A stretch of DNA of 36,661 nt from Escherichia phage HK75, in sequence record HM173637. One strand, given 5' to 3'. The position numbers and the translations under genes are program-made. Each line of letters opens with the position of its first letter. Position 1 is the stretch's first letter. The notes under the pieces are model-generated. The model had not been told where the DNA came from and ran no database searches. It was given only the letters and a program-made list of their open reading frames with translations. Shown piece after piece: positions 24,416 through 36,661 of this stretch.

Positions 24416-25123
24416 TTATGCCGCCTGTTTTAGTTCGTTAACTCTGATGTTCATTACCTGAACGCATTTAGCCTGCGCCTCCTCGTTGCCAGCCATTAAT
24501 TGCCAGTCACGCTGATAACGCTCGATGAGTTTTTTCTTGTCAGTTTCTGTTGACGCATAATCGCTGAAGTCTTTCAGTATTTGTTCGCAGTCAACCGATG
24601 GAGATTTCTGGTTGGTATTTTCTGGTGATGGTTTGTTATCTGATGCTGGGATTGCCCATCCCGGCAGCGATGGAGGAAGCCAGTAAAATCCTGTTCCATC
24701 CTTCAGTTTTGCCCTGTGCCACCCCTGCTTTTTATCGAGAGATGTTTGTGCGAAACCTTCCTCAAGGTTATACAGATACCGACCGATTCCCCACTGAACG
24801 GCAGCGCGCTTCATTGCACCGGAACGACCACCTTTGACGGCTTCTACCTGCGTGTTTTCAGCAGCATCCCATTTGGTTACCCATTCGGAATCAATCTTTA
24901 TTGATATGCCGCATTCAACGCCGCCGTTGTTGGGAATATCGCGGTATTCATTGCGCCATCCTGCTTTGCCGCAAACATCGTCCAGGCGTTTCATGATTGC
25001 CCGGTTCGTGACATAAGCCAGCACCATAGCCCACACTTTGTCATCGCGTGTTTTACCGCTTTGCTGTATTCGCCATTCGATATCTTCAGGGCTGAATGGC
25101 TCATCGAATTTATTCAAATCCAT
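24416..25123 (-). CDS. Single-strand annealing recombinase (Rad52/Erf/Sak superfamily, tentative)
   Basis: 235 aa directly upstream of ssb; GAMKRAAVQWGIGRYLY segment resembling the Rad52-type annealing motif; GAGGTGA RBS. Confidence 0.5.
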   Translation of the reverse strand: MDLNKFDEPFSPEDIEWRIQQSGKTRDDKVWAMVLAYVTNRAIMKRLDDVCGKAGWRNEYRDIPNNGGVECGISIKIDSEWVTKWDAAENTQVEAVKGGRSGAMKRAAVQWGIGRYLYNLEEGFAQTSLDKKQGWHRAKLKDGTGFYWLPPSLPGWAIPASDNKPSPENTNQKSPSVDCEQILKDFSDYASTETDKKKLIERYQRDWQLMAGNEEAQAKCVQVMNIRVNELKQAA

Positions 25124-25131
25124 AATTCACC

Positions 25132-25302
25132 TCAGAATGGACACGGCCCAAGGAAATAACGCTGATTTAATACTTCAGTCTTTGCCGCATTTAAAAATAC
25201 GCGAACACCTTCACGATCTCCCTTCTGGCGATACATTAACGCCTGCTGCGTGTACATGCGTCTCTGTAACTTGCTCTCCTTCACTGTGGTTGCAAGTGAC
25301 AT
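25132..25302 (-). CDS. Hypothetical small basic protein (56 aa)
   Basis: ATG at 25302 with excellent AAGGAGA RBS; overlaps 25211-25381 ORF in another frame. Confidence 0.35.
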   Translation of the reverse strand: MSLATTVKESKLQRRMYTQQALMYRQKGDREGVRVFLNAAKTEVLNQRYFLGPCPF

Positions 25303-25381
25303 GAATATCTCCTTCGTTACCGATTAATTCTTTCATCTGACGAATGAATTCTTCGTCTGACCAGTTATCTGTAAAACTCAT
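25211..25381 (-). CDS. Hypothetical small acidic protein (56 aa), alternative to or overlapping the 25132-25302 ORF
   Basis: ATG overlaps the stop of the upstream Kil-position ORF (ATGA); weak RBS. Confidence 0.2.
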   Translation of the reverse strand: MSFTDNWSDEEFIRQMKELIGNEGDIHVTCNHSEGEQVTETHVHAAGVNVSPEGRS

Positions 25382-25530
25382 TTCCTGCGATACCACGGAA
25401 GGTTGATAGCTGATTTCATCGCTTTATTTGCTTCAAGCCACATTTTGGAATCACCAATAAATCTGGCTATTACTGCTTTGTTCTGTGCTGCACGAAGCAT
25501 CTGGTGATTGATGGCTATTTCATTGCGCAT
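25378..25530 (-). CDS. Small protein at the Kil position (50 aa)
   Basis: ATG at 25530 with GAGGT RBS, immediately after the cIII-like gene, shorter than the ORF-track cutoff. Confidence 0.3.
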   Translation of the reverse strand: MRNEIAINHQMLRAAQNKAVIARFIGDSKMWLEANKAMKSAINLPWYRRK

Positions 25531-25640
25531 AATAAGACCTCAACTCTTTTCCACCCGTCACGTAATTTACGGGTGATTCGTTCAAGTAAAGATTCGGAAG
25601 GGCAGCCAGCAACAGGCCACCCTGCAATGGCATATTGCAT
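25515..25640 (-). CDS. cIII: cIII-like FtsH inhibitor
   Basis: MQYAIAGWPVAGCPSESLLERITRKLRDGWKR matches the recalled lambda cIII N-terminal/central region; 41 aa from the internal ATG of the 25515-25742 ORF. Confidence 0.6.
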   Translation of the reverse strand: MQYAIAGWPVAGCPSESLLERITRKLRDGWKRVEVLLCAMK

Positions 25641-25703
25641 GGTGTGCTCCTTATTTATACATAACGAAAAACGCCTCTCGTGAAGCGTTATTGGTATGCA
25701 TAT

Positions 25704-25727
25704 AAAAAGGCCCTCACACTGGAGGGC
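25704..25727 (-). terminator. Intrinsic terminator (tL1-like) between the N-like gene and cIII
   Basis: On the minus strand GCCCTC-cagtgt-GAGGGC followed by CTTTTTATAT. Confidence 0.4.
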
Positions 25728-25869
25728 AAAGAAGACTTCCAATAATCAGAACAAGTCGGCTCCTGTTTAGTTACGAGCGACATTGCTCCGTGTATTCACT
25801 CGTTGGAATGAATACACAGTGCAGTGTTTATTCTGTTGTTTGCGTGAAAATGAAATCTGCCTAAGCGGG

Positions 25870-26208
25870 TTATGACCACTTTTTGTTTGGGTTTCGTTGG
25901 TGAGCGTGATTAACAACTCTGTGCATTACATCCTCATATTTTTCATCTTCAATTTTTTCGACATCGCGAGGAAATGGTGTTGCTAATGCTTTGTCAACTT
26001 TGTCCATTGGGTCTTCATTAATCTTATATTCCGGACCGTCATCTATAGCATTAAATCCAGGTGTTACACCGTTTTCTAATGCATATGCCATTCTCTTTTC
26101 CCATCTCGCTATTCTCCTCCTGTCTTGAGATGTAAGGCATCTATCAGATACTTTTCTGTTTTGTCCGCGGTCAGGATTAACATAAATAGTCTTTTTCACC
26201 ATAAGCAT
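25870..26208 (-). CDS. Putative N-like antitermination protein
   Basis: First gene leftward of the repressor; basic Arg-rich segment SQDRRRIARWEKR near the N-terminus; ORF-track start at 26214 is TTG, first ATG at 26208. Confidence 0.3.
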   Translation of the reverse strand: MLMVKKTIYVNPDRGQNRKVSDRCLTSQDRRRIARWEKRMAYALENGVTPGFNAIDDGPEYKINEDPMDKVDKALATPFPRDVEKIEDEKYEDVMHRVVNHAHQRNPNKKWS

Positions 26209-26566
26209 ACTCAATAAGCACCGTACGGTAGTTTACTGTACAATTTTATTTTTTGGACTGCATGTATTTTGTTTCCTAATGGGTTTGAATCTTTGCAATA
26301 AATACTTCTATTTTTTCGAACGACTTCTATATCAAAAAGCTGCTTTGCTTTTTGTGACTAAAAGCAAAAAAGCCTTCTCGCTAATGAGCAGCATTGCCGT
26401 TCATCCTGAACCCGCCGCGCTCCCGACGCATGGTTTAAAGACGCGCCGTTCGTCTATGGGCTTATGATGTACCTAAAGTTCATTAATGTAAAGTACCAGT
26501 AGTACATTTTATGGGTATAAAAAGCTCACTACATCATAAGTTAGTGAACTTTAAGGAAATTTATTT

Positions 26567-27274
26567 TTATCCGAATCGCTTGTAATCGATTGACTGCCTA
26601 ATGAGGACTTTGGCTAGAATGTGAAGTTGCTCTTCTTCACCTTCTTCTATGTACCATCGATCATAAGCGGCATTGTCAGAGATGACGGCAAGCCTGTTCT
26701 TTTGCATTTGCAGGCGCTTAACGTGCATTGTTTTCCCGTATACAAACACATAAATGCCATCGCCATCAAAACAGGTTATGGATACATCAACAAAGATCTC
26801 ATCTCCCGGATTGATGGTTCCCTCCATGCTGTCACCGCGAACCGTGATGACTTTTACGCTTTCCTGTGGCCTTCCATTAAATAAAATTCTTGCCTGCTCG
26901 GTCGTATATTCAATTGCTCTTATCTTTTCTATAAATTCATTGGAAACCATGGTTCCTGGCCCGGCGCTCGCCTGAACATCCAATACATCAACACGATAAG
27001 AATCATTTGATCTTGATAGATGATTTACCGTGATACCGTCATCATCAGCATAGCCATGCAGATATGCCGCAGTGGTTCCCAGCACCGAAGCCAGAGATTC
27101 CATCTTGTCTTTTCTTGGTATTGACTCCCCGTTGAACCATTTACTAATGGCTTTTGGTGTGACCTTAAGCCTGACAGCTAAATCAGCCTGCCTACCATGC
27201 AAAGGTAATCCCGCTTTATCACAGGTCAGCGCAAGCCTCTGCGAGAAAGTTTCACGCTCTTTCTGTTGAACCAT
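26567..27274 (-). CDS. cI: cI-like prophage repressor (HTH plus S24 LexA-type peptidase domain)
   Basis: 235 aa from ATG 27274; N-terminal HTH; C-terminal GDSM Ser and VKRL Lys dyad; start codon lies inside an operator repeat (leaderless-type). Confidence 0.85.
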   Translation of the reverse strand: MVQQKERETFSQRLALTCDKAGLPLHGRQADLAVRLKVTPKAISKWFNGESIPRKDKMESLASVLGTTAAYLHGYADDDGITVNHLSRSNDSYRVDVLDVQASAGPGTMVSNEFIEKIRAIEYTTEQARILFNGRPQESVKVITVRGDSMEGTINPGDEIFVDVSITCFDGDGIYVFVYGKTMHVKRLQMQKNRLAVISDNAAYDRWYIEEGEEEQLHILAKVLIRQSIDYKRFG

Positions 27275-27283
27275 AAGTTCAAC
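27267..27283. promoter_or_regulatory. Operator candidate OR-a
   Basis: TGAACCATAAGTTCAAC containing palindrome TGAAC-N5-GTTCA; identical core repeated at 27324-27340. Confidence 0.55.
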
Positions 27284-27294
27284 TATATTAGGTA

Positions 27295-27323
27295 TTGACT
27301 GTACTATCAGTTCCGTCATAATA
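27295..27323 (+). promoter_or_regulatory. pR-like promoter for cro
   Basis: TTGACT (-35), 17-bp spacer, ATAATA (-10); next operator copy overlaps the predicted start site. Confidence 0.55.
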
Positions 27324-27340
27324 TGAACCATAAGTTCACC
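27324..27340. promoter_or_regulatory. Operator candidate OR-b
   Basis: TGAACCATAAGTTCACC, second copy of the 15-bp palindromic core. Confidence 0.55.
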
Positions 27341-27353
27341 ACAGGAGAGAAGC

Positions 27354-27575
27354 ATGAACGAAGTTACGTTTGCAGACGTTATCAAATCCGTTCGAGTTTC
27401 TGTTGTGGCTGAGGTTTGTGGCCTGACTCCAAAAGCCGTTTACAAGTGGCTGGAGAAAGGGGGATTGCCGCGTACAGAATTCACTGATGAAACTGACTAC
27501 GCGAAAAAAATCTCTCGTGCATCTGGCGGCAAATTCTCAACCGCACTGATTAAGCGAGTCGGAAAAGCAGCATAA
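27354..27575 (+). CDS. cro: Cro-like repressor
   Basis: 73 aa, divergent from cI, AGGAG RBS, HTH segment AEVCGLTPKAVYKWL. Confidence 0.7.
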   Translation: MNEVTFADVIKSVRVSVVAEVCGLTPKAVYKWLEKGGLPRTEFTDETDYAKKISRASGGKFSTALIKRVGKAA

Positions 27576-27704
27576 GCACGTTTTTAAAATGTACTTTTAG
27601 TTCCGAACGGCCCGGTATATGGTCGGGTGCCCGGCGTGGTCAAGGATGACTGTCAATGGTGCACGATAAAAACCCAAATTATTTACCTATGGAGATAGTA
27701 AGAA

Positions 27705-28001
27705 ATGGCACAAGCAAGCTACAGCAAGCCAACACAGCGAGAAATTGATCGCGCTGAAACTGATTTACTCATCAACCTGTCAACGCTTACCCAGCGCGGT
27801 CTGGCAAAGATGATTGGCTGTCATGAATCGAAGATAAGCAGAACGGACTGGAGATTTATTGCTTCGGTCTTGTGTGCTTTCGGAATGGCATCAGACATCA
27901 GTCCGATTAGCAGGGCTTTTAAGTATGCATTGGATGGAATCGCAAAGAAAAAATCCCCGGCTGCCACCGAGGATTTTAAGCAAATTGATATGCAATTCTG
28001 A
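27705..28001 (+). CDS. cII: cII-like transcriptional activator
   Basis: 98 aa; C-terminal KKSPAATEDFKQIDMQF close to recalled lambda cII C-terminus; HTH LAKMIGCHESKISR. Confidence 0.75.
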   Translation: MAQASYSKPTQREIDRAETDLLINLSTLTQRGLAKMIGCHESKISRTDWRFIASVLCAFGMASDISPISRAFKYALDGIAKKKSPAATEDFKQIDMQF

Positions 28002-28033
28002 GGGAATTACTGGATCAATCCACAGGAGTAATT

Positions 28034-28195
28034 ATGACAAAACGTCGTAAGAAATACCAGGAAAAAGAAGAGATTCGACACCCTGATTCACCTGAGGGAT
28101 TAGTGGTAGCCGCAGCAAATAACAGGGCGTTCGCAGAGCGCCTTGTTGGTGTTTACAGACTAGCCAAAGCAGGAGTGAAACATGGGCGTCGTTAA
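28034..28195 (+). CDS. Small basic protein (53 aa), unknown
   Basis: ATG with GGAG RBS (28025-28028); Lys/Arg-rich N-terminus; below the ORF-track size cutoff. Confidence 0.3.
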   Translation: MTKRRKKYQEKEEIRHPDSPEGLVVAAANNRAFAERLVGVYRLAKAGVKHGRR

Positions 28196-28244
28196 GTTAG
28201 CTGATTACAGGCATAACCCTGTACAACATCAGGAGGCATCCAGT

Positions 28245-29072
28245 ATGGGGTATGTCTCTATACACCGCCAGTTTATGGACAGCAGGCTCTATAAGGACTC
28301 TCAGGCAGTACATCTTTGGCTTCACTTAATTCTCAAGGCTAATCACGAATCTACTGTCGTCAATACGGATATCGGGCCGATAACTGTTGATCGCGGTCAG
28401 ATGATAACTGGACGCCCGTCGCTGGTCAGAGAAACATTCATCCCCGACAACAAAGTTCGGAGCTTATTACGGACTTTTGAGTCGAAAGGGATGCTTAATA
28501 TTTGCTCGATGGGGAAGAAATTTAGCCTGTTTACAATCGTTAAATATGACGATTTTCAGGCAAAAAATTGTCCAACGGTTGTCCAACGGTTGTCCAACGC
28601 AAACACCAGTAATGGCGCGGCTCTCAGCGGAGATTGTCCAACGGTTGTCCAACGGTTGTCCATAAACAATAATATAAATAATATCTCTAATACTGACGTA
28701 TTAGAGAGTGCCACAGCAGACAAAAAGTCTGACAAGAAAAAACCTTCCGTTAGCTGTCAGGATGTTGTCGATGCTTACCACGAAATCCTTCCTGAAGCGC
28801 CAAAAATCCGCGCACTGAATGACAAGCGTAAAAACCAGATCCGAACGTTCTGGCGCAAAGCCGGAGTGATAACCCGCCAGCTTGACGGGCATGGGTTCAC
28901 GATGCAGGACTGGAGAAATTATTTGAGCTACGTAGGCGAAAATTGTCGATGGATGTTCGAAGAGCGTCCAAACCATCAACGCGGAACTGTCTGGCACAAA
29001 AAGGGATTTGATTTCCTGCTTAACGACAATACCTACCTGAAAGTTCGTGAGGGTGAACACGATGACCGATAA
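28245..29072 (+). CDS. Replication initiator (lambda O / P22 gp18-like) containing the origin iterons
   Basis: ATG 28245 with AGGAGG RBS; two clusters of three 11-bp iterons inside the coding region followed by an AT-rich stretch. Confidence 0.7.
   Translation: MGYVSIHRQFMDSRLYKDSQAVHLWLHLILKANHESTVVNTDIGPITVDRGQMITGRPSLVRETFIPDNKVRSLLRTFESKGMLNICSMGKKFSLFTIVKYDDFQAKNCPTVVQRLSNANTSNGAALSGDCPTVVQRLSINNNINNISNTDVLESATADKKSDKKKPSVSCQDVVDAYHEILPEAPKIRALNDKRKNQIRTFWRKAGVITRQLDGHGFTMQDWRNYLSYVGENCRWMFEERPNHQRGTVWHKKGFDFLLNDNTYLKVREGEHDDR
28568..28600 (+). repeat. ori iteron cluster 1 (3 x TTGTCCAACGG)
   Basis: Three tandem 11-bp direct repeats. Confidence 0.8.
28634..28666 (+). repeat. ori iteron cluster 2 (2 x TTGTCCAACGG plus degenerate TTGTCCATAAA) followed by AT-rich region
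   Basis: Tandem 11-bp direct repeats 33 bp after cluster 1; AT-rich 28667-28700. Confidence 0.8.
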
Positions 29073-30498
29073 TTTTTATGCGCCGCCCCATAGCATCGAG
29101 GCAGAGCAGGCGGTGATTGGTGGATTGCTTCTGGATGATGACAGCAGTGAGCGCGTCCAGAAAGTTCTGGCGATGCTGAAGCCTGATTCATTTTACAGCC
29201 GACCACACAAAATCCTTTTCGAAGAAATAACCAGAATGCACCGGGAGCAAAAGCCAGTAGATGGCCTGACGCTTTTCGATGAACTGGAGCGTAAATCGTT
29301 AACGGCGTCTGTTGGCGGTTTTGCTTATATCGCTGAGATCGCAAAGAGCACGCCAAGCGCAGCAAACATCGTTGCCTATGCAATGCAGGTTCGTGAAACC
29401 GCAATGGAACGCTACGCCATCAACCGCATGACTGAAGCGACGGAATTGCTCTATTCCCGCAACGGAATGACTGCAACGCAGAAGTACGAAGCTATTCAGT
29501 CGATTTTCACGCAACTGACAGACCATGCAAAAACAGGATCGCGTCGCGGCCTTCGCTCATTTGGTGAGGTCATGGAAGACTGGGTTAGCGACCTTGAGAA
29601 GCGATTTGACCCGTCAGGCGAACAACGAGGAATGAGCACAGGGATCCCATCGCTGGACAGGATGCTGTCACCGAAAGGTCTGGTGAAAGGCTCTCTGTTT
29701 GTCATTGGTGCTCGCCCTAAGATGGGGAAAACGACGCTATACAGCCAGATGGCAATCAACTGCGCAGTGCATGAGAAAAAGCCCGCTCTTATGTTCAGCC
29801 TTGAAATGCCAGGTGACCAGATACTGGAAAAACTGGTAGGGCAGAAGTCTGGTGTTAACCCGAATATTTTTTACCTTCCGGCGACAAATGACGCTGATGA
29901 CGGCTATCAGGGTGATTACGATGGTGACTTCAACAGGGCGATCGAAACAGCCAATCGCTTGAGTGAAATCGACCTGCTTTACATCGACGACACGCCGGGA
30001 TTATCTCTGGCTCAAATCGTCAGCGAAAGTCGTCGAATCAAGCGAGAAAAAGGATGTGTTGGCATGATTCTGGTCGATTACCTGACACTAATGACCGCTG
30101 AAAAGGCCGATCGCAACGACCTTGCTTACGGCATGATCACCAAAGGACTGAAGAACCTTGCCAAAGAGCTTGATTGCGTTGTTGTGCTTCTGACACAGCT
30201 TAACCGCGCACTGGAAAGCCGAACCAATAAACGCCCATTACCAAGTGACTCACGAGATACAGGGCAGATTGAACAGGATTGCGATTATTGGGTGGGGATC
30301 CATCGTGAAGGCGCTTTTGATGACAGTGTTCCACCTGGTGAAACTGAACTAATCCTTCGTCTCAATCGTCATGGCAATACCGGCACGGTGTATTGCATTC
30401 AGGCAAATGGCGCTATTTATGACACCGACCAACAGTCTGCTGAAATGCGCCGCCGTGAACGCGAGGAACCGCAGTCCAAGAAGAAAGGAGGATTCTGA
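29062..30498 (+). CDS. Replicative DNA helicase (DnaB family)
   Basis: About 479 aa; Walker A GARPKMGKT; DnaB N-terminal IEAEQAVIGGLL; start overlaps the initiator gene end. Confidence 0.85.
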   Translation: MTDNFYAPPHSIEAEQAVIGGLLLDDDSSERVQKVLAMLKPDSFYSRPHKILFEEITRMHREQKPVDGLTLFDELERKSLTASVGGFAYIAEIAKSTPSAANIVAYAMQVRETAMERYAINRMTEATELLYSRNGMTATQKYEAIQSIFTQLTDHAKTGSRRGLRSFGEVMEDWVSDLEKRFDPSGEQRGMSTGIPSLDRMLSPKGLVKGSLFVIGARPKMGKTTLYSQMAINCAVHEKKPALMFSLEMPGDQILEKLVGQKSGVNPNIFYLPATNDADDGYQGDYDGDFNRAIETANRLSEIDLLYIDDTPGLSLAQIVSESRRIKREKGCVGMILVDYLTLMTAEKADRNDLAYGMITKGLKNLAKELDCVVVLLTQLNRALESRTNKRPLPSDSRDTGQIEQDCDYWVGIHREGAFDDSVPPGETELILRLNRHGNTGTVYCIQANGAIYDTDQQSAEMRRREREEPQSKKKGGF

Positions 30499-30573
30499 TG
30501 ACCATCTACATCACTGAGCTAATAACAGGCCTGCTGGTAATCGCAGGCCTTTTTATTTGGGGGAGAGTAAATC

Positions 30574-30780
30574 GTGGCTGAGTTGATTTTCTCTGCATTG
30601 AGGATTCTCGGTGCTATGTGGATGGTGGCGACGTTCATTGTGGTTGCCAGCAGTTTTGTCCGGTTGGTAGGCGAAGGTAAAGACCTGGTTGGTGTGCTTT
30701 TCGGTAGCATTTTTCTGTGGGTGATTATCGGTGTTATGCCTGTCGCTGTAGCAAAAATGGCGTGGCGTTTTGTTAGTTGA
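30574..30780 (+). CDS. Small two-helix membrane protein, unknown
   Basis: 68 aa hydrophobic ORF (GTG start) after the helicase gene; a 27-codon hydrophobic ORF (30498-30581) precedes it. Confidence 0.3.
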   Translation: MAELIFSALRILGAMWMVATFIVVASSFVRLVGEGKDLVGVLFGSIFLWVIIGVMPVAVAKMAWRFVS

Positions 30781-30787
30781 GGTGACA

Positions 30788-31198
30788 ATGAAGCAAACAA
30801 TCTTCCTCCGAACTAAGCAACAACAGCAAGCTGCAATAAATGCCATCCTCGCAACACCACTCGATAAAGACAAGCCAGTCACCATCCGCATTACTGACTA
30901 CAAGCGCAACCTTGACCAGAACGCAAAATTTCACGTGATGCTGGCGGATATCGCTCGTCAGGTTCAATGGTGCGGCAAATGGTTAAAACCGGAACAATGG
31001 AAGGTTTTGTTGATCAGCGGTCATGCAGTGGCTACAAAGCAGGAAGCTGATGTTTTGCCCGGCCTTGAAGGCGAATACGTCAACATTCGCGAAAGCAGCG
31101 CGCAGATGAGCGTGAAGCGCATGGCAAGCCTGATTGAGTACACGACAGCATGGGCTATTGGTCAGGGTGTCAGATTTACCGACAGGAGGTACGAATGA
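30788..31198 (+). CDS. ninB: NinB recombination protein
   Basis: 136 aa from ATG 30788 (GAGGTGA RBS); core [33 protein letters not shown] resembles recalled lambda NinB. Confidence 0.8.
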
Positions 31199-31377
31199 GA
31201 CGACAACGACGAAGTTTCACCGACACCATCTGCGAAAACTGCAAATACCTTCCAACCAAACGCACCAGAAATAAACGCAAGCCAATCCCAAAAGAATCTG
31301 ACGTAAAAACCTTCAACTACACGGCTCACCTGTGGGATATCCGGTGGCTTAGAGAACGTGCGAGGAATACAAGGTGA
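31195..31377 (+). CDS. ninE: NinE-like protein
   Basis: 60 aa starting [18 protein letters not shown]; AGGAGG RBS; ATGA overlap with the ninB stop. Confidence 0.55.
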
Positions 31378-31544
31378 TTGACCCAAATCGAAGTTACGAA
31401 CAAGAAAGCGTCGAGCGGGCTTTAACGTGCGCTAACTGCGGTCAGAAGCTGCATGTGCTGGAAGTTCACGTGTGTGAGCACTGCTGCGCAGAACTGATGA
31501 GCGATCCGAATAGCTCAATGTACGAGGAAGAAGACGATGAGTGA
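31374..31544 (+). CDS. ninF: NinF-like zinc-ribbon protein
   Basis: 56 aa with CxxC...CxxC; GTG start overlapping the ninE stop; not in ORF track (<60 aa). Confidence 0.45.
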
Positions 31545-32259
31545 GTTAATGAATGGCAATGCCATCAAAATGACAAGCATTGAAATCGCTGAGTTGGTGG
31601 GTAAGCGTCATGACAATGTGAAACGTACCATCGAAACGCTGGCTAAAAATGGTGTTATCCGGCTTCCTCAAATTGAGGTTTCCGAAAGAATCAATAACTT
31701 AGGATTCAATGTTCAGTACGAGCATTACGTATTCGAAGGCGAACAAGGTAAGCGAGATAGTATTGTTGTTGTAGCCCAGTTGTCGCCGGAATTCACCGCT
31801 CGCCTTGTTGACCGCTGGCGAGAACTTGAAGACGCTGCGGTTAATATCCCCAAAACGCTACCAGAAGCGTTGCGCCTTGCTGCTGATCTTGCTGAGCAGA
31901 AAATGCAACTGGAAAACCAGCTCGCAATTGCCGCACCTAAAGTTGAGTTTGCCGATCGCGTTGGCGAGGCCAGTGGAATTTTGATTGGAAACTTTGCAAA
32001 GGTTGTTGGAATTGGTCCAAACAAACTGTTTGCGTGGATGCGCGATCACAAAATCCTTATTGCTTCAGGTTCCCGGCGCAATGTGCCAATGCAGGAATAT
32101 ATGGATCGCGGCTATTTCACAGTGAAAGAAACAGCGGTCAACACAAATCACGGAATACAGATATCGTTCACCACAAAAATCACCGGACGTGGCCAACAGT
32201 GGCTGACCAGAAAGCTGCTCGATAACGGAATGCTGAAAGTAACAGGGGAGGCTGCTTAA
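31537..32259 (+). CDS. Rha-family regulator / antirepressor (Rha N-domain plus ANT/KilAC C-domain)
   Basis: N-terminus MTSIEIAELVGKRHDNVKRTI typical of Rha; C-terminal FAKVVGIGPNKLFAWMRDHKIL typical of the ANT domain. Confidence 0.7.
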   Translation: MSELMNGNAIKMTSIEIAELVGKRHDNVKRTIETLAKNGVIRLPQIEVSERINNLGFNVQYEHYVFEGEQGKRDSIVVVAQLSPEFTARLVDRWRELEDAAVNIPKTLPEALRLAADLAEQKMQLENQLAIAAPKVEFADRVGEASGILIGNFAKVVGIGPNKLFAWMRDHKILIASGSRRNVPMQEYMDRGYFTVKETAVNTNHGIQISFTTKITGRGQQWLTRKLLDNGMLKVTGEAA

Positions 32260-32549
32260 TGGCTAACCTACGCAAAGAAGCACGCGGCAGAGAATGCCAG
32301 GTACGTATTTACGGCGTATGCAATGGCAACCCTGAAACTACAGTTCTGGCACATTACCGGATGGCTGGAATTTGCGGAACGGGAATGAAGCCTGACGACC
32401 TGATCGGCGCATGGGCTTGTAGCGCGTGTCACGATGAAATCGACCGACGCACCCATAACCTCGACAACAAAGACGCCAGACTTTACCACCTCGAAGGCGT
32501 GATCAGGACGCAGGCGATACTGCTGAAGGAGGGAAAGATTAAGCCATGA
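32259..32549 (+). CDS. DUF1364-type protein (YbcO-like)
   Basis: 96 aa, RGRECQVRIYGVCNGNPETTVLAH...ACSACHDEIDRRTH resembles recalled E. coli DLP12 YbcO; directly upstream of rusA as in DLP12. Confidence 0.65.
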   Translation: MANLRKEARGRECQVRIYGVCNGNPETTVLAHYRMAGICGTGMKPDDLIGAWACSACHDEIDRRTHNLDNKDARLYHLEGVIRTQAILLKEGKIKP

Positions 32550-32908
32550 ACGAATATCAGTTTGTGCTTCCATACCCGCCGTCGGTGAATACCTACTGGC
32601 GAAGACGAGGAAGCCAATACTACATCAGCGATAAAGGCCAGAAATACCGAAAAGACGTTCAGCAAATCATCCGCCAACTTAAGTTAGACATTTTCACCAA
32701 ATCACGACTCCGCATCAAAGTCATCGCAGACGTTCCAGACTCCCGCCGCCGCGACCTCGATAACATCCTGAAAGGTTTACTCGACTCACTTATCCACGCC
32801 GGATTTGCGGAAGACGACGAGCAATTCGATGACATTCGCGTAATTCGTGGTGTGAAAGTACCAGGCGGACGGCTTGGAATAAAAATCACCGAACTGGAGA
32901 ACGCATGA
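32546..32908 (+). CDS. rusA: RusA Holliday junction resolvase
   Basis: 120 aa, conserved DSRRRDLDNILKGLLDSL and C-terminal GGRLGIKITE. Confidence 0.85.
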   Translation: MNEYQFVLPYPPSVNTYWRRRGSQYYISDKGQKYRKDVQQIIRQLKLDIFTKSRLRIKVIADVPDSRRRDLDNILKGLLDSLIHAGFAEDDEQFDDIRVIRGVKVPGGRLGIKITELENA

Positions 32909-33093
32909 ACGCCACAATTCAAACGATACCAGAGCTTCTTATCCAGACGCGAGGCAATCAGACCGAAGTGGCGAGGATGCTTTCCTGCGCAAGAGGAACA
33001 GTGCTCAAGTACAACCGAGACAGCAAAGGCGAGCGTCACGTAATAGTTAACGGCGTCCTGATGGTCAAACAGGGCAAAAGGGGAAGACGATGA
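32905..33093 (+). CDS. ninH: NinH-like small DNA-binding protein
   Basis: 62 aa, GNQTEVARMLSCARGTVLKY resembles recalled lambda NinH. Confidence 0.55.
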   Translation: MNATIQTIPELLIQTRGNQTEVARMLSCARGTVLKYNRDSKGERHVIVNGVLMVKQGKRGRR

Positions 33094-33608
33094 GCATAAG
33101 AGAGCTAAACCTCACCAAAGAACAGCACGATTGGCTGAATTGCTGGCTTGAACTGTGGGGCGCATGGGTTTATTCAGGTCGTCTGGAAAAGCGCATGAGC
33201 AGCGTAATAGCGAAGTTCATGGAGAGCGTAGAGCCGGGAAGAGTTATGACAAGGCCAATGTGCAATGATGATGATGGAATGTTGATTTCTCAGGTCGTCG
33301 ATTCCGTCATGTACATTGACAAGAAAGCCTTCGGCATCCTCCTCAGCTACTACGCTCATGGTTCATCTAAGCGAGCAATTGCATCCTACTATCACGCGAC
33401 TGCAAAGCCACGCAAGATGTGTGGACGTGGTGGCGAGGGATGGAGAAAACCTTCACTGGCAACCTGTAGAAACGAAATTGACGACATCCTGAAAGCGTCG
33501 TTATTTGTTTTGTACCAGCCAATGCAAAATGCTTTCAAAATGCGTAAACGTGTTGAGAAAGTTAAGCATGTTGCTGTTAAAAGCCTTGACATGCAATTAT
33601 CCATTTAG
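33090..33608 (+). CDS. Putative late-gene antiterminator (Q-like)
   Basis: 172 aa, last gene before a strong promoter-hairpin-T-run unit and the lysis cassette; several Cys; position-based call. Confidence 0.4.
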   Translation: MSIRELNLTKEQHDWLNCWLELWGAWVYSGRLEKRMSSVIAKFMESVEPGRVMTRPMCNDDDGMLISQVVDSVMYIDKKAFGILLSYYAHGSSKRAIASYYHATAKPRKMCGRGGEGWRKPSLATCRNEIDDILKASLFVLYQPMQNAFKMRKRVEKVKHVAVKSLDMQLSI

Positions 33609-33615
33609 CCATAAT
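33586..33615 (+). promoter_or_regulatory. pR'-like late promoter
   Basis: TTGACA (33586-33591), 18-bp spacer, CATAAT (33610-33615). Confidence 0.45.
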
Positions 33616-33625
33616 TAGAAGGTAA

Positions 33626-33667
33626 GCTGCCGTTAGTGACTCTTAAGTTGCAACGGTGGCTTTTTTT
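33626..33667 (+). terminator. tR'-like terminator shortly downstream of the late promoter
   Basis: GC-containing inverted repeat (GCCGTT...AACGGTGGC) followed by TTTTTTTGTTTG. Confidence 0.4.
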
Positions 33668-33745
33668 GTTTGCACAACAGGTAAGAGCATTGAACCCGCA
33701 GACCTCGCGGAATTGGTGAAAGGTGCCGCGCAGTGCTCTTATCGA

Positions 33746-33872
33746 TGTGGTGAAGCTCAATGGCGAGCTAACAGATAGGCGACAGTGAAAATACTAGTCA
33801 TGTAGCTGACCGCCGCGCGTACTGCAATCGGCAGCGCACCGATGGAAGCCGGTTCGATTCCGGCCGCCACAA
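33746..33872 (+). pseudogene. tRNA-like element / disrupted tRNA (all four arms present, ~59-nt insertion between D-arm and anticodon arm)
   Basis: Acceptor TGTGGTG pairs 7/7 with CGCCACA; D-arm GCTC-AATGGC-GAGC; anticodon-like arm ATCGG-CAGCGCA-CCGAT; T-arm GCCGG-TTCGATT-CCGGC; lacks U8 and U33. Confidence 0.3.
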
Positions 33873-34117
33873 CCCAAACTGAGCCGTAGCCACTGGCTAT
33901 CCTGAATTCATCAGTGATAGTTACGCTGCGGCCTTCTACACATGACCTTCGTGAAAGCGGGTGGCAAGAGGCTGCGCTAACAACCTCCTGCCGTTTTGCC
34001 AGTGCATATCGGTCACGAACAAATCTGATTACTAAACACAGTAACCTGGATTTGTTCTATCAGTAATCGACCTTATTCCTAATTAAATAGAGCAAATCCC
34101 CTTATTGGGGGTAAGAC

Positions 34118-34441
34118 ATGAAGATGCCAGAAAAAAATGACCTGTTAGCCGCCATTCTCGCGGCAAAGGAACAAGGCATCGGGGCAATCCTTGCGTTTGC
34201 AATGGCGTACCTTCGCGGCAGATATAATGGCGGTGCGTTTACAAAAACAGTAATCGACGCAACGATGTGCGCCATTATCGCCTGGTTCATTCGTGACCTT
34301 CTCGGCTTCGCCGGACTAAGTAGCAATCTCGCTTATATAACGAGCGTGTTTATCGGCTACATCGGTACTGACTCGATTGGTTCGCTTATCAAACGCTTCG
34401 CTGCTAAAAAAGCCGGAGTAGAAGATGGTGGAAATCAATAA
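34118..34441 (+). CDS. S: Class I holin (lambda S-like, dual-start)
   Basis: 107 aa beginning MKMPEK (Met1/Met3 dual-start motif), three TM segments, near-identical to recalled lambda S. Confidence 0.9.
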
Positions 34442-34901
34442 TCAACGTAAGGCGTTCCTCGATATGCTGGCATGGTCAGAGGGAACTGATAACGGACGTC
34501 AGAAAACCAGAAATCATGGTTATGACGTCATTGTAGGAGGAGAGCTATTCACTGATTACTCCGATCACCCTCGCAAACTTGTCACGCTAAACCCCAAACT
34601 CAAATCAACAGCCGCCGGACGCTACCAGCTTCTTTCCCGTTGGTGGGATGCCTACCGTAAGCAGCTTGGCCTGAAAGACTTCTCTCCGAAAAGCCAGGAC
34701 GCTGTGGCATTGCAGCAGATTAAGGAGCGTGGCGCTTTGCCGATGATTGATCGTGGTGATATTCGTCAGGCAATTGACCGTTGCAGCAATATCTGGGCTT
34801 CACTGCCGGGCGCTGGTTATGGTCAGTTCGAGCATAAGGCTGACAGCCTGATTGCAAAATTCAAAGAGGCTGGCGGAACGGTCAGAGAGATTGAGGTATG
34901 A
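34425..34901 (+). CDS. R: Endolysin (lambda R-like lytic transglycosylase)
   Basis: 158 aa, near-identical to recalled lambda R. Confidence 0.9.
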
Positions 34902-35335
34902 GCAGAGTCACCGCGATTATCTCCGCTCTGGTTATCTGCATCATCGTCTGCCTGTCATGGGCGGTTAATCATTACCGTGATAACGCCATCTCCTACAAAG
35001 AGCAGCGCGATAAAGCCACATCCATCATCGCTGATATGCAGAAGCGTCAACGTGATGTAGCAGAACTCGACGCCAGATACACAAAGGAGCTTGCTGATGC
35101 TAACGCGACTATCGAAAGTCTCCGTGCTGATGTTTCTGCTGGTCGTAAGCGCCTGCAAGTCGCCGCCACCTGTGCAAAGTCAACGACCGGAGCCAGCGGC
35201 ATGGGCGATGGAGAAAGCCCAAGACTTACAGCAGATGCTGAACTCAATTATTACCGTCTCCGAAGTGGAATCGACAAGATAACCGCGCAGGTTAACTACC
35301 TGCAGGAATACATCAGGACGCAATGCCTGAAATAA
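34898..35335 (+). CDS. Rz: i-spanin Rz
   Basis: 145 aa, N-terminal TM helix, coiled-coil periplasmic domain, follows R. Confidence 0.8.
35091..35282 (+). CDS. Rz1: o-spanin Rz1 lipoprotein embedded in Rz (+1 frame)
   Basis: Signal peptide with lipobox ending in Cys (LVVSAC), Pro-rich mature region, entirely within Rz. Confidence 0.7.
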
Positions 35336-35367
35336 TTTTTTTGCAAATCACAAAGTCAATTTAATGA

Positions 35368-35392
35368 GCCTCGCGAAAAGCGGGGCTTTTTT
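35368..35392 (+). terminator. Intrinsic terminator after the lysis cassette
   Basis: GCCTCGC-gaaaa-GCGGGGC followed by TTTTTT. Confidence 0.55.
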
Positions 35393-35543
35393 ATGTCCGC
35401 AGTAAACCGCGCATTCTCGTGCGCATATCAACCAAGAGCTTTTCGGGATATGAGACAGAGACAGGACGGTGGCTTACATCGTGCCGCTCTTGGGCTGTCC
35501 ATGTCTGCGAGAACTGGCTCATATCACCAAAAAGGTAAATACG

Positions 35544-35840
35544 ATGTCCAATATCATCCCGATTGATTTCGAAGGCCATCCCATGCGTTTTTCTGACGAT
35601 GGCTGGTTTGACGCGACTGCGGCAGCTGACAAGTTCAACAAGGAGCCGGCTCAGTGGCTTAGGCTTCCTGAGACTGTCCGTTACATCGAGGCGTTAAAGA
35701 GTAGATATGGGAATATCACATATGTAAAAACCAGCCGCGCTCGCAAAGACCGTGGTGGCGGACTGATGGAAAGACATCGGTTATTGCAGAGGTCATTCAA
35801 TGAGTGGTCTCGACAATGGCTTATACCCTACACGGGATAA
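35544..35840 (+). CDS. KilA-N domain protein (tentative)
   Basis: 98 aa from ATG 35544; IIPIDFEGHPMRF...DGWFDATAAADKFNKEPAQWLRL pattern resembles KilA-N/APSES-type domains. Confidence 0.4.
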   Translation: MSNIIPIDFEGHPMRFSDDGWFDATAAADKFNKEPAQWLRLPETVRYIEALKSRYGNITYVKTSRARKDRGGGLMERHRLLQRSFNEWSRQWLIPYTG

Positions 35841-35977
35841 CTTAACTGATATCCCTTTTAACGGATAAACGGAGCCAACAATGGCAGAGATTATTCTCAT
35901 GACTGAAGAACAGAAATTCCAGTTAGAGATTTACAAACTGGTCATGAACCAGAACGCCGCCGTGCATGGAGACTGGC

Positions 35978-36319
35978 ATGAACAAAGAGCCCCGCGTATA
36001 TGGCAGCCGATGGGATAAGGCCCGTCTGCGTTTTCTCCAGCAGCACCCACTGTGTGTGATGTGCGAGCAGCAGGGGCGCATAACACCAGCAACGGTGGTC
36101 GACCATATCGTGCCCCACAAACTGAAAGATGCGCTTAAGTCAGGTAACCCTCTGGCCATATCGAAAGCACAGCTCCTGTTCTGGAGTAAAGAGAACTGGC
36201 AGCCACTGTGCAAAGCGCATCATGACTCAACGAAACAGAGAATGGAGAAGAGCGGCGCGGTAATCGGTTGTGATGCCAACGGCTACCCGCTCGATCCTGC
36301 GTCTCACTGGAGCACGTAA
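35978..36319 (+). CDS. HNH endonuclease (terminase-associated type)
   Basis: 113 aa from ATG 35978 (GGAG RBS); CxxC, DHIVPH and CKAHH HNH motifs; sits just upstream of the cos/terminase region in genome order. Confidence 0.75.
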   Translation: MNKEPRVYGSRWDKARLRFLQQHPLCVMCEQQGRITPATVVDHIVPHKLKDALKSGNPLAISKAQLLFWSKENWQPLCKAHHDSTKQRMEKSGAVIGCDANGYPLDPASHWST

Positions 36320-36522
36320 TGAAAGACCTCATCATTGAATACCGAGACGGTAAGTTTGTTCAGCTGGCGATTGATGGCGTGGAGATGAAGCACGTAACAT
36401 CTATCCAGTTCTCCCACACCGCAGGCGAGGACGTACCGACATTGACCGTGTCAGGACATGTGTGGTCCGAGTATGGGGAAGGCGATCACAAACTCGAACA
36501 GGTAGACAAACATTCGGCATAG
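36319..36522 (+). CDS. Hypothetical small protein
   Basis: 67-aa ORF coupled (ATGA overlap) to the HNH gene. Confidence 0.35.
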   Translation: MKDLIIEYRDGKFVQLAIDGVEMKHVTSIQFSHTAGEDVPTLTVSGHVWSEYGEGDHKLEQVDKHSA

Positions 36523-36606
36523 CGCGGCGGCGGCAAGTCGATTATCTATCATGTGAAATCATTTCAAATGCAACGATATCAAATGAGAATGAATCGCATT
36601 CAGGGC

Positions 36607-36619
36607 GGGGGGGGGGGGG
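36607..36619. repeat. Homopolymeric G13 tract in the putative cos region
   Basis: 13 consecutive G between the last ORF and the window end; flanked by GCGGCGGCGG (36523-36535) and its inverted copy CCGCCGCC (36651-36658). Confidence 0.6.
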
Positions 36620-36661
36620 ATCAAATCTTCAAAATCTTTGCCCCAAATGACCGCCGCCAAA

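Follow-up and report, generated by a model that had tools for sequence, protein, structure and literature searches.

The region 25870-26566 of the window (the whole 36,661-nt stretch of Escherichia phage HK75 DNA analysed here) holds the early-left control elements of a lambdoid phage that has HK022-type immunity, a known and intensively studied system. Judged from sequence matches, its first leftward ORF is the Nun protein of HK022, not an N-type antiterminator, and the phage antiterminator is the putL RNA directly upstream of the AU-rich hairpin in the leader. We consider it very probable that the whole is to be read as a pL-putL-nun region in which the antiterminator is putL RNA and the hairpin has no role in antitermination. 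A preliminary description of the letters had recognised a minimal pL region with its first leftward gene at the position of lambda N, and that outline stands.

Megablast matched HK022 and O276 to 25600-27400 over the full length with ~98% identity. O276 is a laboratory HK022/lambda hybrid (MH547045) annotated by put researchers, and its record marks pL, putL, the nun promoter, nun, and putR at homologous positions. The leftward order in the window is cI, a terminator-like hairpin, OL/pL, putL, an AU-rich stem-loop, an N relic with the nun promoter, nun, terminators, and cIII; HK022 (X16093, AF069308; O276 MH547045) has the same order of cI, OL/pL, putL, stem-loop, nun promoter, and nun. The features are as follows.

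26567..27274, minus strand: cI repressor gene, 235 aa, HTH plus S24 peptidase (Pfam HTH_3 and Peptidase_S24; X16093 alignment)
26521..26552, minus strand: terminator-like hairpin close behind the cI stop, with UUUUUAU after it (fold -11.6 kcal/mol, z -3.5)
26464..26506, minus strand: OL/pL (X16093 and O276 features transferred; the promoter scan gives the same hexamers)
26492-26506, minus strand: OL2, one substitution relative to HK022
26487-26492, minus strand: pL -35, TTTACA (O276/X16093 transfer; promoter scan)
26468-26482, minus strand: OL1, one substitution relative to HK022
26464-26469, minus strand: pL -10, CATCAT (O276/X16093 transfer; promoter scan)
26386..26457, minus strand: putL antiterminator RNA, +1 at 26457, identical to putL of HK022 and O276
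26386-26448, minus strand: putL as annotated in O276, +10 to +72, transferred via the alignment
26334..26378, minus strand: 18-bp AU-rich stem-loop, +80 to +124, with the hairpin 26344-26368 as its tip
26365..26371, minus strand: U6 tract, +87 to +92, and pause position +93 (sequence, and a statement in PMC9378689)
26211..26328, minus strand: 3' relic of a phage-21-type N gene, ~38 codons plus stop, without start codon and without arginine-rich motif
26258-26263 and 26235-26240, minus strand: -35 and -10 of the nun promoter (O276 annotation transferred)
25870..26199, minus strand: nun gene, 109 aa from GTG at 26199 (phmmer against PDB)
25785..25827, minus strand: very strong hairpin just downstream of nun (-24.5 kcal/mol, z -7.5)
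25710-25727 and 25670-25689, minus strand: two intrinsic-terminator-like sites between nun and cIII (terminator scan)
27609..27665, plus strand: putR, second antiterminator RNA, downstream of cro (O276 annotation transferred)

The AT-rich leader, previously estimated at about 350 bp, measures 352 bp with 37% G+C, and, as was also seen before, no rexAB-like gene lies between cI and the nun ORF. From the cI stop, whose codon begins at 26567, to the nun start, the alignment revealed three base differences from HK022 and O276: one in each OL operator (OL1 and OL2) and a third located 15 nt before the GTG start. Between the pL start and a point 15 nt short of the GTG, the hairpin included, the window does not differ from HK022 and O276, and its OR operators are identical to those of HK022. 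The cI product is identical to HK022 cI at 233 of 235 residues (differences A17T and Y92S); a 272-aa cI ORF from TTG was rejected as an over-long call. The hairpin at 26521-26552, just after cI, carries no annotation in any record and may have a timm-like function. Beyond the single substitutions in OL1 and OL2, the window differs from HK022 in lacking IS903 between nun and cIII, in five substitutions in Nun, and in Cro, which diverges from ~27413 onward. Outside this region the genome is a mosaic of other composition, with structural genes ~98% identical to those of HK633, HK446, and mEpX1.

The leftward ORF 25870-26214 encodes 114 aa from a TTG start, one residue more than the 113 aa counted in the preliminary description. 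The nun start in GenBank X16093 is the ATG at 26208 (112 aa), and the 109-aa form from the GTG at 26199 fits the protein in the solved structure. In a phmmer search against PDB, the product was identical to HK022 Nun (6ALG chain N) at 104 of 109 residues with E 9e-69, and its arginine-rich motif was identical at 22 of 26 residues to the Nun peptide in the solved complex with lambda boxB RNA (1HJI_B, E 2e-8). The Arg-rich character noted earlier thus corresponds to a genuine N-type arginine-rich motif in the first leftward protein, but the tentative 'N-like' assignment made along with it has to be replaced by Nun on these two matches. Pfam gave no family for the nun ORF at E <= 0.1 and hence no match to the N family PF25694. 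For N itself Pfam has little power, as a true phage-21-type N (that of mEpX1) scores PF25694 at only E 0.003; it is the PDB match to Nun that is decisive for the ORF being Nun, not N.

HK022 has no N (PMC9378689, PMC6256539). Nun brings RNA polymerase to a halt on nut transcripts of lambda and takes no part in the antitermination of its own phage (PMC5386594, PMC9378689). Its arginine-rich helix binds lambda nut boxB, its C-terminus blocks polymerase translocation, and mutations at H98, K106/K107, and W108 impair it (PMC5386594). Residues 43-109 of the window protein, including H98, K106, K107, and W108, are identical to 6ALG chain N. The gene should therefore not be labelled 'N' in annotation, since the job of Nun is the opposite one of arresting the transcription of a rival phage. 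Nun-like genes were found in 28 phage records.

The antitermination function lies elsewhere. Nascent put RNAs bind the beta' zinc-binding domain of the polymerase at the RNA exit channel and suppress pausing as well as intrinsic and Rho-dependent termination, without a phage protein (PMC9378689, PMC6256539). Antitermination maps to putL (PMC9378689), and O276, which carries only nun, cI, cro, and cII from HK022, needs no phage antitermination protein (PMC6256539). The putL pairings resolved by cryo-EM (A3-G7/U19-C15, G36-C39/G69-C72, a bulged U68, and NANNAT at +23 to +28; PMC9378689) fit the window sequence only with +1 at 26457, and the structured putL RNA therefore spans +3 to +72 (26455-26386), with two stem-loops and a -10-like AACCAT at +23 to +28. 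The window has exactly two matches to the put core pattern, 26388-26412 on the minus strand and 27638-27662 on the plus strand; shuffles have none. During lytic growth, the pL transcript starting at 26457 would fold its +3 to +72 segment into the two-stem putL RNA, which, once on the beta' zinc-binding domain, would let the polymerase resist pausing and termination with no phage protein. There is neither N nor a nut site because put RNA alone gives terminator resistance.

Canonical boxA/boxB elements had not been found in the leader before, and we confirmed that lambda-type patterns, searched with 2-3 mismatches over the whole window, occur at chance level, with none in either early leader. 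Nor did covariance models recover a nut site there, as had been thought possible: an Rfam scan gave no significant nut match in the leader, and over 25500-28200 (E up to 10) it returned nothing significant for nut or put. Matches in the leader were at chance level only (E > 2), as they were at both put sites, and those over the hairpin (mir-4679, E 3; rsmX, E 2.6) were far below gathering scores. At gathering thresholds, only the cIII thermoregulator passed in the whole window. Because Rfam reached only chance level at the put sites, covariance-model scans of such phages can be expected to return nothing, as was the case here. The absence of a nut site is consequently no gap in the annotation, the antitermination signals being putL and putR.

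We then consider the hairpin itself. The perfect hairpin at 26344-26368, TTTGCTTTT-tgtgact-AAAAGCAAA, is present as originally reported, with a 9-bp stem and a 7-nt loop, and it is modestly beyond chance: a perfect 9-bp hairpin arose in 64 of 3000 shuffles of the 352-bp leader (~2%), and the window contains five perfect hairpins of at least 9 bp versus 1.4 +/- 1.4 in shuffles. In the minus-strand RNA, the fold extends the stem to 18 bp with one mismatch (-16.5 kcal/mol, z -2.9); in the plus-strand RNA it has 12 bp (-11.9 kcal/mol), three G.U pairs having turned into A-C mismatches. Since these three G.U pairs form only in the leftward RNA, the stem-loop is specific to the pL transcript. The same pairs, together with the occurrence elsewhere of the same RNA shape in unrelated sequence, led us to reject a DNA palindrome that binds a protein. 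Within the family of the window's own stem-loop, the loop varies among relatives and the stem is invariant; as only the loop varies, covariation gives no evidence for this particular stem.

The stem-loop lies directly 3' of putL, and its 5' arm is the U6 tract. A backtrack pause that is suppressed by putL has been located 21 nt after stem II (PMC9378689, citing Komissarova 2008), a position that we computed to be +93, window 26365. Polymerase would backtrack and pause at the U6 tract unless putL were bound.

New here is the observation that putL-type sites, nearly without exception, have a long hairpin after them and that putR-type sites have none. Sites were collected with a pattern for the put stem II core, found in 74 viral contigs and 5 bacterial genomes (Kluyvera, Siccibacter, Pantoea, and E. 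coli), and the best single hairpin just downstream of each put site was scored for distinct sequences. The median best hairpin was -15.9 kcal/mol downstream of putL-type sites (37 distinct sequences) versus -8.0 kcal/mol for shuffles of the same 37 sequences, and -2.3 kcal/mol downstream of putR-type sites (21 distinct sequences); the best hairpin downstream of the window's own putR likewise reaches only -2.3 kcal/mol. Hairpins after putL are usually 38-49 nt long with stems of 17-20 bp, and they start 3-30 nt, mostly 10-15 nt, past the put core. They fall into about ten families of unrelated sequence, eight of them strong, one weaker, and one weak in the viral set, the last being restored by compensatory changes in Pantoea. 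The recurrence spans phages of Escherichia, Kluyvera, Siccibacter, and Pantoea. Covariation was evident in one family, where 6 of 17 pairs were changed on both sides with the loop UUUACGAG kept, a level reached by none of 500 shuffles.

Going by its form and by earlier work, the 18-bp stem-loop is most likely an RNase III processing site. Consistent with an RNase III-type site, the pL-strand RNA forms a near-perfect duplex of about two helical turns. Sloan et al. reportedly observed, in 2007, rapid cleavage by RNase III just downstream of putL that left putL stability and antitermination unchanged, and we take the stem at +80 to +124 to be the obvious candidate for that cleavage site. A full-text literature search for 'putL' with 'RNase III' returned nothing relevant. 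RNase III acting on the full stem would separate the polymerase-bound putL RNA from the downstream message, and the hairpin would play no part in antitermination. As cleavage reportedly changed neither putL stability nor antitermination, it offers no ready explanation of a selected function for the stem. The activity of put is independent of an RNA tether (PMC9378689, citing Sloan et al. 2007).

Downstream of the stem-loop, the leader holds its only true N sequence, a dead 3' fragment at 26211-26328 in which the nun promoter now resides. This relic is new in the present analysis; a full-text literature search for an N remnant in HK022 found nothing relevant. The segment has one mismatch relative to the 3' end of the N-like gene of mEpX1 and reads in frame ...EVVRKNRSIYCKDSNPLGNKIHAVQKIKLYSKLPYGAY-stop; its stop is TGA, as in mEpX1, and HK022 has TGG there. 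By tblastn, its translation matches N genes of mEpX1, mEp235, PA28, ES18, and P22-like phages. In mEpX1, the homologous ~115 bp upstream of nun are the 3' end of an annotated N-like gene, and the protein encoded by that gene contains the arginine-rich peptide of phage 21 N (PDB 1NYB). The same stretch in a prophage of E. coli LR882493 is a RefSeq pseudogene missing its N-terminus.

The phages with an N-nun tandem (mEpX1, mEp235, PA28, and Stx1a-converting phages) have 25600-26328 in common with the window at ~94-95% identity, the common part comprising nun, ~115 bp upstream of it, the downstream terminators, and cIII. They keep a complete phage-21-type N with an annotated nut boxA upstream of nun, whereas in the window all that lies 5' of the final ~38 N codons has given way to the putL-plus-hairpin module. 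Among E. coli prophages, the shared segment runs from cI to 26325 or from 26464 to 26325, or it breaks off at 26385; Stx1 phages and mEpX1 share 25600-26328. In E. coli genomes and Stx1 phages, the mosaic breakpoints are therefore at 26385, where putL ends, and at 26325-26328, where the stem-loop ends. Because they flank the edges of the hairpin, the hairpin belongs with putL, not with nun. The most economical history would have a putL-plus-hairpin cassette take the place of nutL and of the 5' two-thirds of N within an N-nun tandem. If this is true, the HK022 arrangement is a datable swap of protein-based for RNA-based antitermination.

Taking the survey and the relic together, we tentatively propose, at slightly less than an even chance, that putL-type RNAs have an integral, selected partner in the long near-perfect hairpin directly 3' of putL and that the N relic reflects the cassette swap. 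If so, the phage would benefit from having the putL RNA on the polymerase cut loose from the message, or from another activity of the hairpin, despite the reported lack of an effect on antitermination in the one published test.

Two other accounts of the stem-loop deserve weighing. It could, together with its U-run (GCUUUUUG), be a weak intrinsic terminator or attenuator, a checkpoint that stops polymerases without folded putL before they reach nun and the early-left genes. Such a checkpoint would be sensible given that folded put RNA was present on only ~40% of complexes in vitro (PMC9378689); the inner 14 bp taken alone are followed by UUUUG, and three other post-putL hairpin families also end in a U-run. 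The consensus terminator scan, however, made no call here because G-C pairs are too scarce in the perfect part of the stem. The lowest-energy fold buries the U-run in stem pairs, and most of the other families have no U-run at all. Moreover, the event reported at this place is the backtrack pause at +93, before the 3' arm exists (PMC9378689). We regard a terminator as improbable.

Somewhat less probable still is that the hairpin has no function and is either a chance inverted repeat in an AT-rich spacer or debris from the exchange in which nutL and the 5' part of N were replaced by recombination. Chance alone does produce a perfect 9-bp hairpin in the fraction of shuffled leaders given above, and the stem sits exactly at the mosaic junction beside the N relic. 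A chance repeat, though, would hardly account for long hairpins after nearly all putL-type sites in some ten unrelated families and their absence after putR-type sites, for the compensatory changes in one family, or for the G.U pairs that make the stem specific to the pL transcript. As for debris, a 9-nt match to N coding sequence, CAAAGCAGC, is collinear with the hairpin, but 93 of 2000 shuffles were as good, so the match is not significant, and we discarded the idea that the hairpin is decayed N coding sequence.

The idea of an N-type antiterminator encoded by the ORF, with the AU-rich hairpin as its unconventional nut- or boxB-like recruitment site, raised in the preliminary description, draws on the place of the nun ORF at N's position by pL, on its arginine-rich motif, and on the 1989 GenBank entry X16093, where a feature 'put. 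nutL equivalent' maps to 26333-26366, but it is effectively refuted and extremely unlikely: the ORF is Nun with a complete C-terminal arrest segment and no Pfam N-family match; antitermination maps to putL, the element directly upstream (PMC9378689), and O276 gets by without any phage antitermination protein (PMC6256539); the hairpin has a 9-18-bp A/U-rich stem, a 7-nt loop (AGUCACA), and no boxA, whereas boxB has a ~5-bp G-C-rich stem and a GNRA-like pentaloop and is preceded by boxA; other phages have unrelated hairpins in its place; and nun is present without the hairpin in Stx1 phages and mEpX1. The nutL-equivalent idea of 1989 is superseded by the discovery of put.

We return to the pL-putL-nun reading, which invites comparison with the pL-nutL-N region of lambda. 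Both lie at the same place beside the repressor, both have a long untranslated leader with an antitermination signal, and in both the first gene product has an arginine-rich RNA-binding helix. The lambda N leader, too, has an RNase III site, which lies after the antitermination signal and before the first gene. The two systems differ in that put RNA alone antiterminates here, whereas lambda relies on N and Nus factors acting at boxA and boxB; the first product here arrests transcription on a competitor's RNA, whereas that of lambda promotes its own read-through. The rexAB genes of lambda are absent here.

In a lysogen, cI would shut pL, and nun would be expressed from its own promoter, probably weak and constitutive. 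King et al. (2000) reportedly traced nun transcription in lysogens to a constitutive promoter immediately before the gene and found that these transcripts end at the terminators after nun. Transcripts from the nun promoter, having no put, would stop at those terminators, and, extrapolating from the HK022 literature, we assume that the terminators at 25670-25727 do stop such transcripts and are read through by put-modified polymerase. The terminator-like site previously placed at 25704-25727 is real; its stem is 25710-25727 on the minus strand, followed by CTTTTTAT. Nun would then bind, via its arginine-rich helix, the boxB hairpin in the nut RNA of a superinfecting lambda, and its C-terminus would jam polymerase translocation, so that lambda is excluded.

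As this is a textbook region, the copy in the window adds little biologically; the hairpin that recurs after putL and the N relic offer leads of modest weight. Work on put, Nun, or phage mosaicism may find some interest in these two, the relic with its nun promoter, as well as in a locus free of IS903 and in a cluster of substitutions in the Nun helix. The very strong hairpin just downstream of nun includes a perfect 9-bp inverted repeat at 25790-25817, and a 9-bp site within it, 25803-25811, is the position of IS903 in HK022 and O276; the site, placed by the 9-bp overlap of the blast junctions, is uninterrupted here. The substitutions relative to HK022 Nun (S11R, G21C, R25Q, I37M, and K42E) are all N-terminal, and four of the five (G21C, R25Q, I37M, and K42E) fall in the RNA-binding helix, residues ~20-44. 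We assume that the window's Nun is active against lambda despite R25Q and the three other helix changes. The apparent clustering in the helix, read from the alignment, is a new observation here.

Nearly all putL-type antiterminator sites among the loci that match the put stem II core pattern (L003-L076 from viral contigs, L079-L083 from bacterial genomes) are followed on their 3' side by one long hairpin, which in the window is an 18-bp stem-loop at 26334-26378 on the minus strand. These hairpins are mostly 38-49 nt long, with a median folding energy of -15.9 kcal/mol, and in most cases start 10-15 nt beyond the put core. A comparable downstream hairpin was absent from the putR-type sites, the second put sites located after cro (median -2.3 kcal/mol). 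The post-putL hairpins fall into approximately 10 sequence families that are unrelated to each other. In one family, exemplified by L070, L066, L033, and L080 and located ~8-11 nt 3' of the put core, the loop UUUACGAG is constant and the stem covaries (GAAUUACAGAUCGCU vs GAUUUACCAGGUGGCA). Because the loop is conserved while the stem changes, this pattern suggests that the family has a sequence-specific partner. Four further elements of the leftward region were recognized in the window, as follows.

26521-26552, minus strand: hairpin followed by UUUUUAU, directly 3' of the cI stop codon and ahead of OL2
26211-26328, minus strand: 3'-terminal relic of a phage-21-type N gene (~38 codons plus stop), between the post-putL hairpin and nun
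25785-25827, minus strand: very stable hairpin shortly past the nun stop codon (-24.5 kcal/mol, z -7.5)
25595-25653, minus strand: lambda cIII thermoregulator RNA (Rfam RF01804, 88.5 bits), at the cIII start

The hairpin after cI, which is unannotated in the database records compared, is likely the terminator of cI transcripts. Such a terminator would stop these transcripts from reading through putL and thereby becoming termination-resistant. Farther along, the N relic differs by a single mismatch from the N-like gene of mEpX1, a relative with a complete phage-21-type N gene upstream of nun, and it contains the nun promoter hexamers. Its stop codon is TGA in both the window and mEpX1, whereas HK022 has TGG.

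The nun product (25870-26199) differs from HK022 Nun, the transcription-arrest factor that excludes lambda, at five residues (11, 21, 25, 37, and 42), all within the N-terminal 42, whereas residues 43-109 are identical. Four of the five substitutions (G21C, R25Q, I37M, and K42E) are in the boxB-binding helix, and R25Q presumably corresponds to Gln4 of lambda N. These substitutions could reflect a shift in the target range of Nun. The hairpin past nun has no U-run and may serve as a 3' end stabilizer or processing site. In HK022 and the HK022/lambda hybrid phage O276, IS903 is inserted precisely in this hairpin with a 9-bp duplication, whereas the site in the window (25803-25811) is uninterrupted. 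The cIII element represents the only Rfam family above the gathering threshold in the whole window.

In the immunity region, all three OR operators (27267-27338) are the same as those of HK022, whereas OL1 (26468-26482) and OL2 (26492-26506) differ by one base each and cI by two amino acids. Cro (27354-27575) diverges from its HK022 counterpart starting at ~27413 and has 73 rather than 76 amino acids; we therefore place a recombination joint within cro. On sequence comparison, the window is most of a phage genome of the HK97/HK022 group (1-23895 and 25000-36661). Its structural genes are ~98% identical to those of HK633, HK446, HK106, and mEpX1, and the early-right region is nearest to HK022 (~97%); no phage in the collection matched the window end to end. 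The replication region contains one further element.

28684-28707: perfect 9-10 bp palindrome, TCTCTAATAC-TGAC-GTATTAGAGA, within a 296-aa ORF (28182-29072)

This palindrome may be part of an origin.
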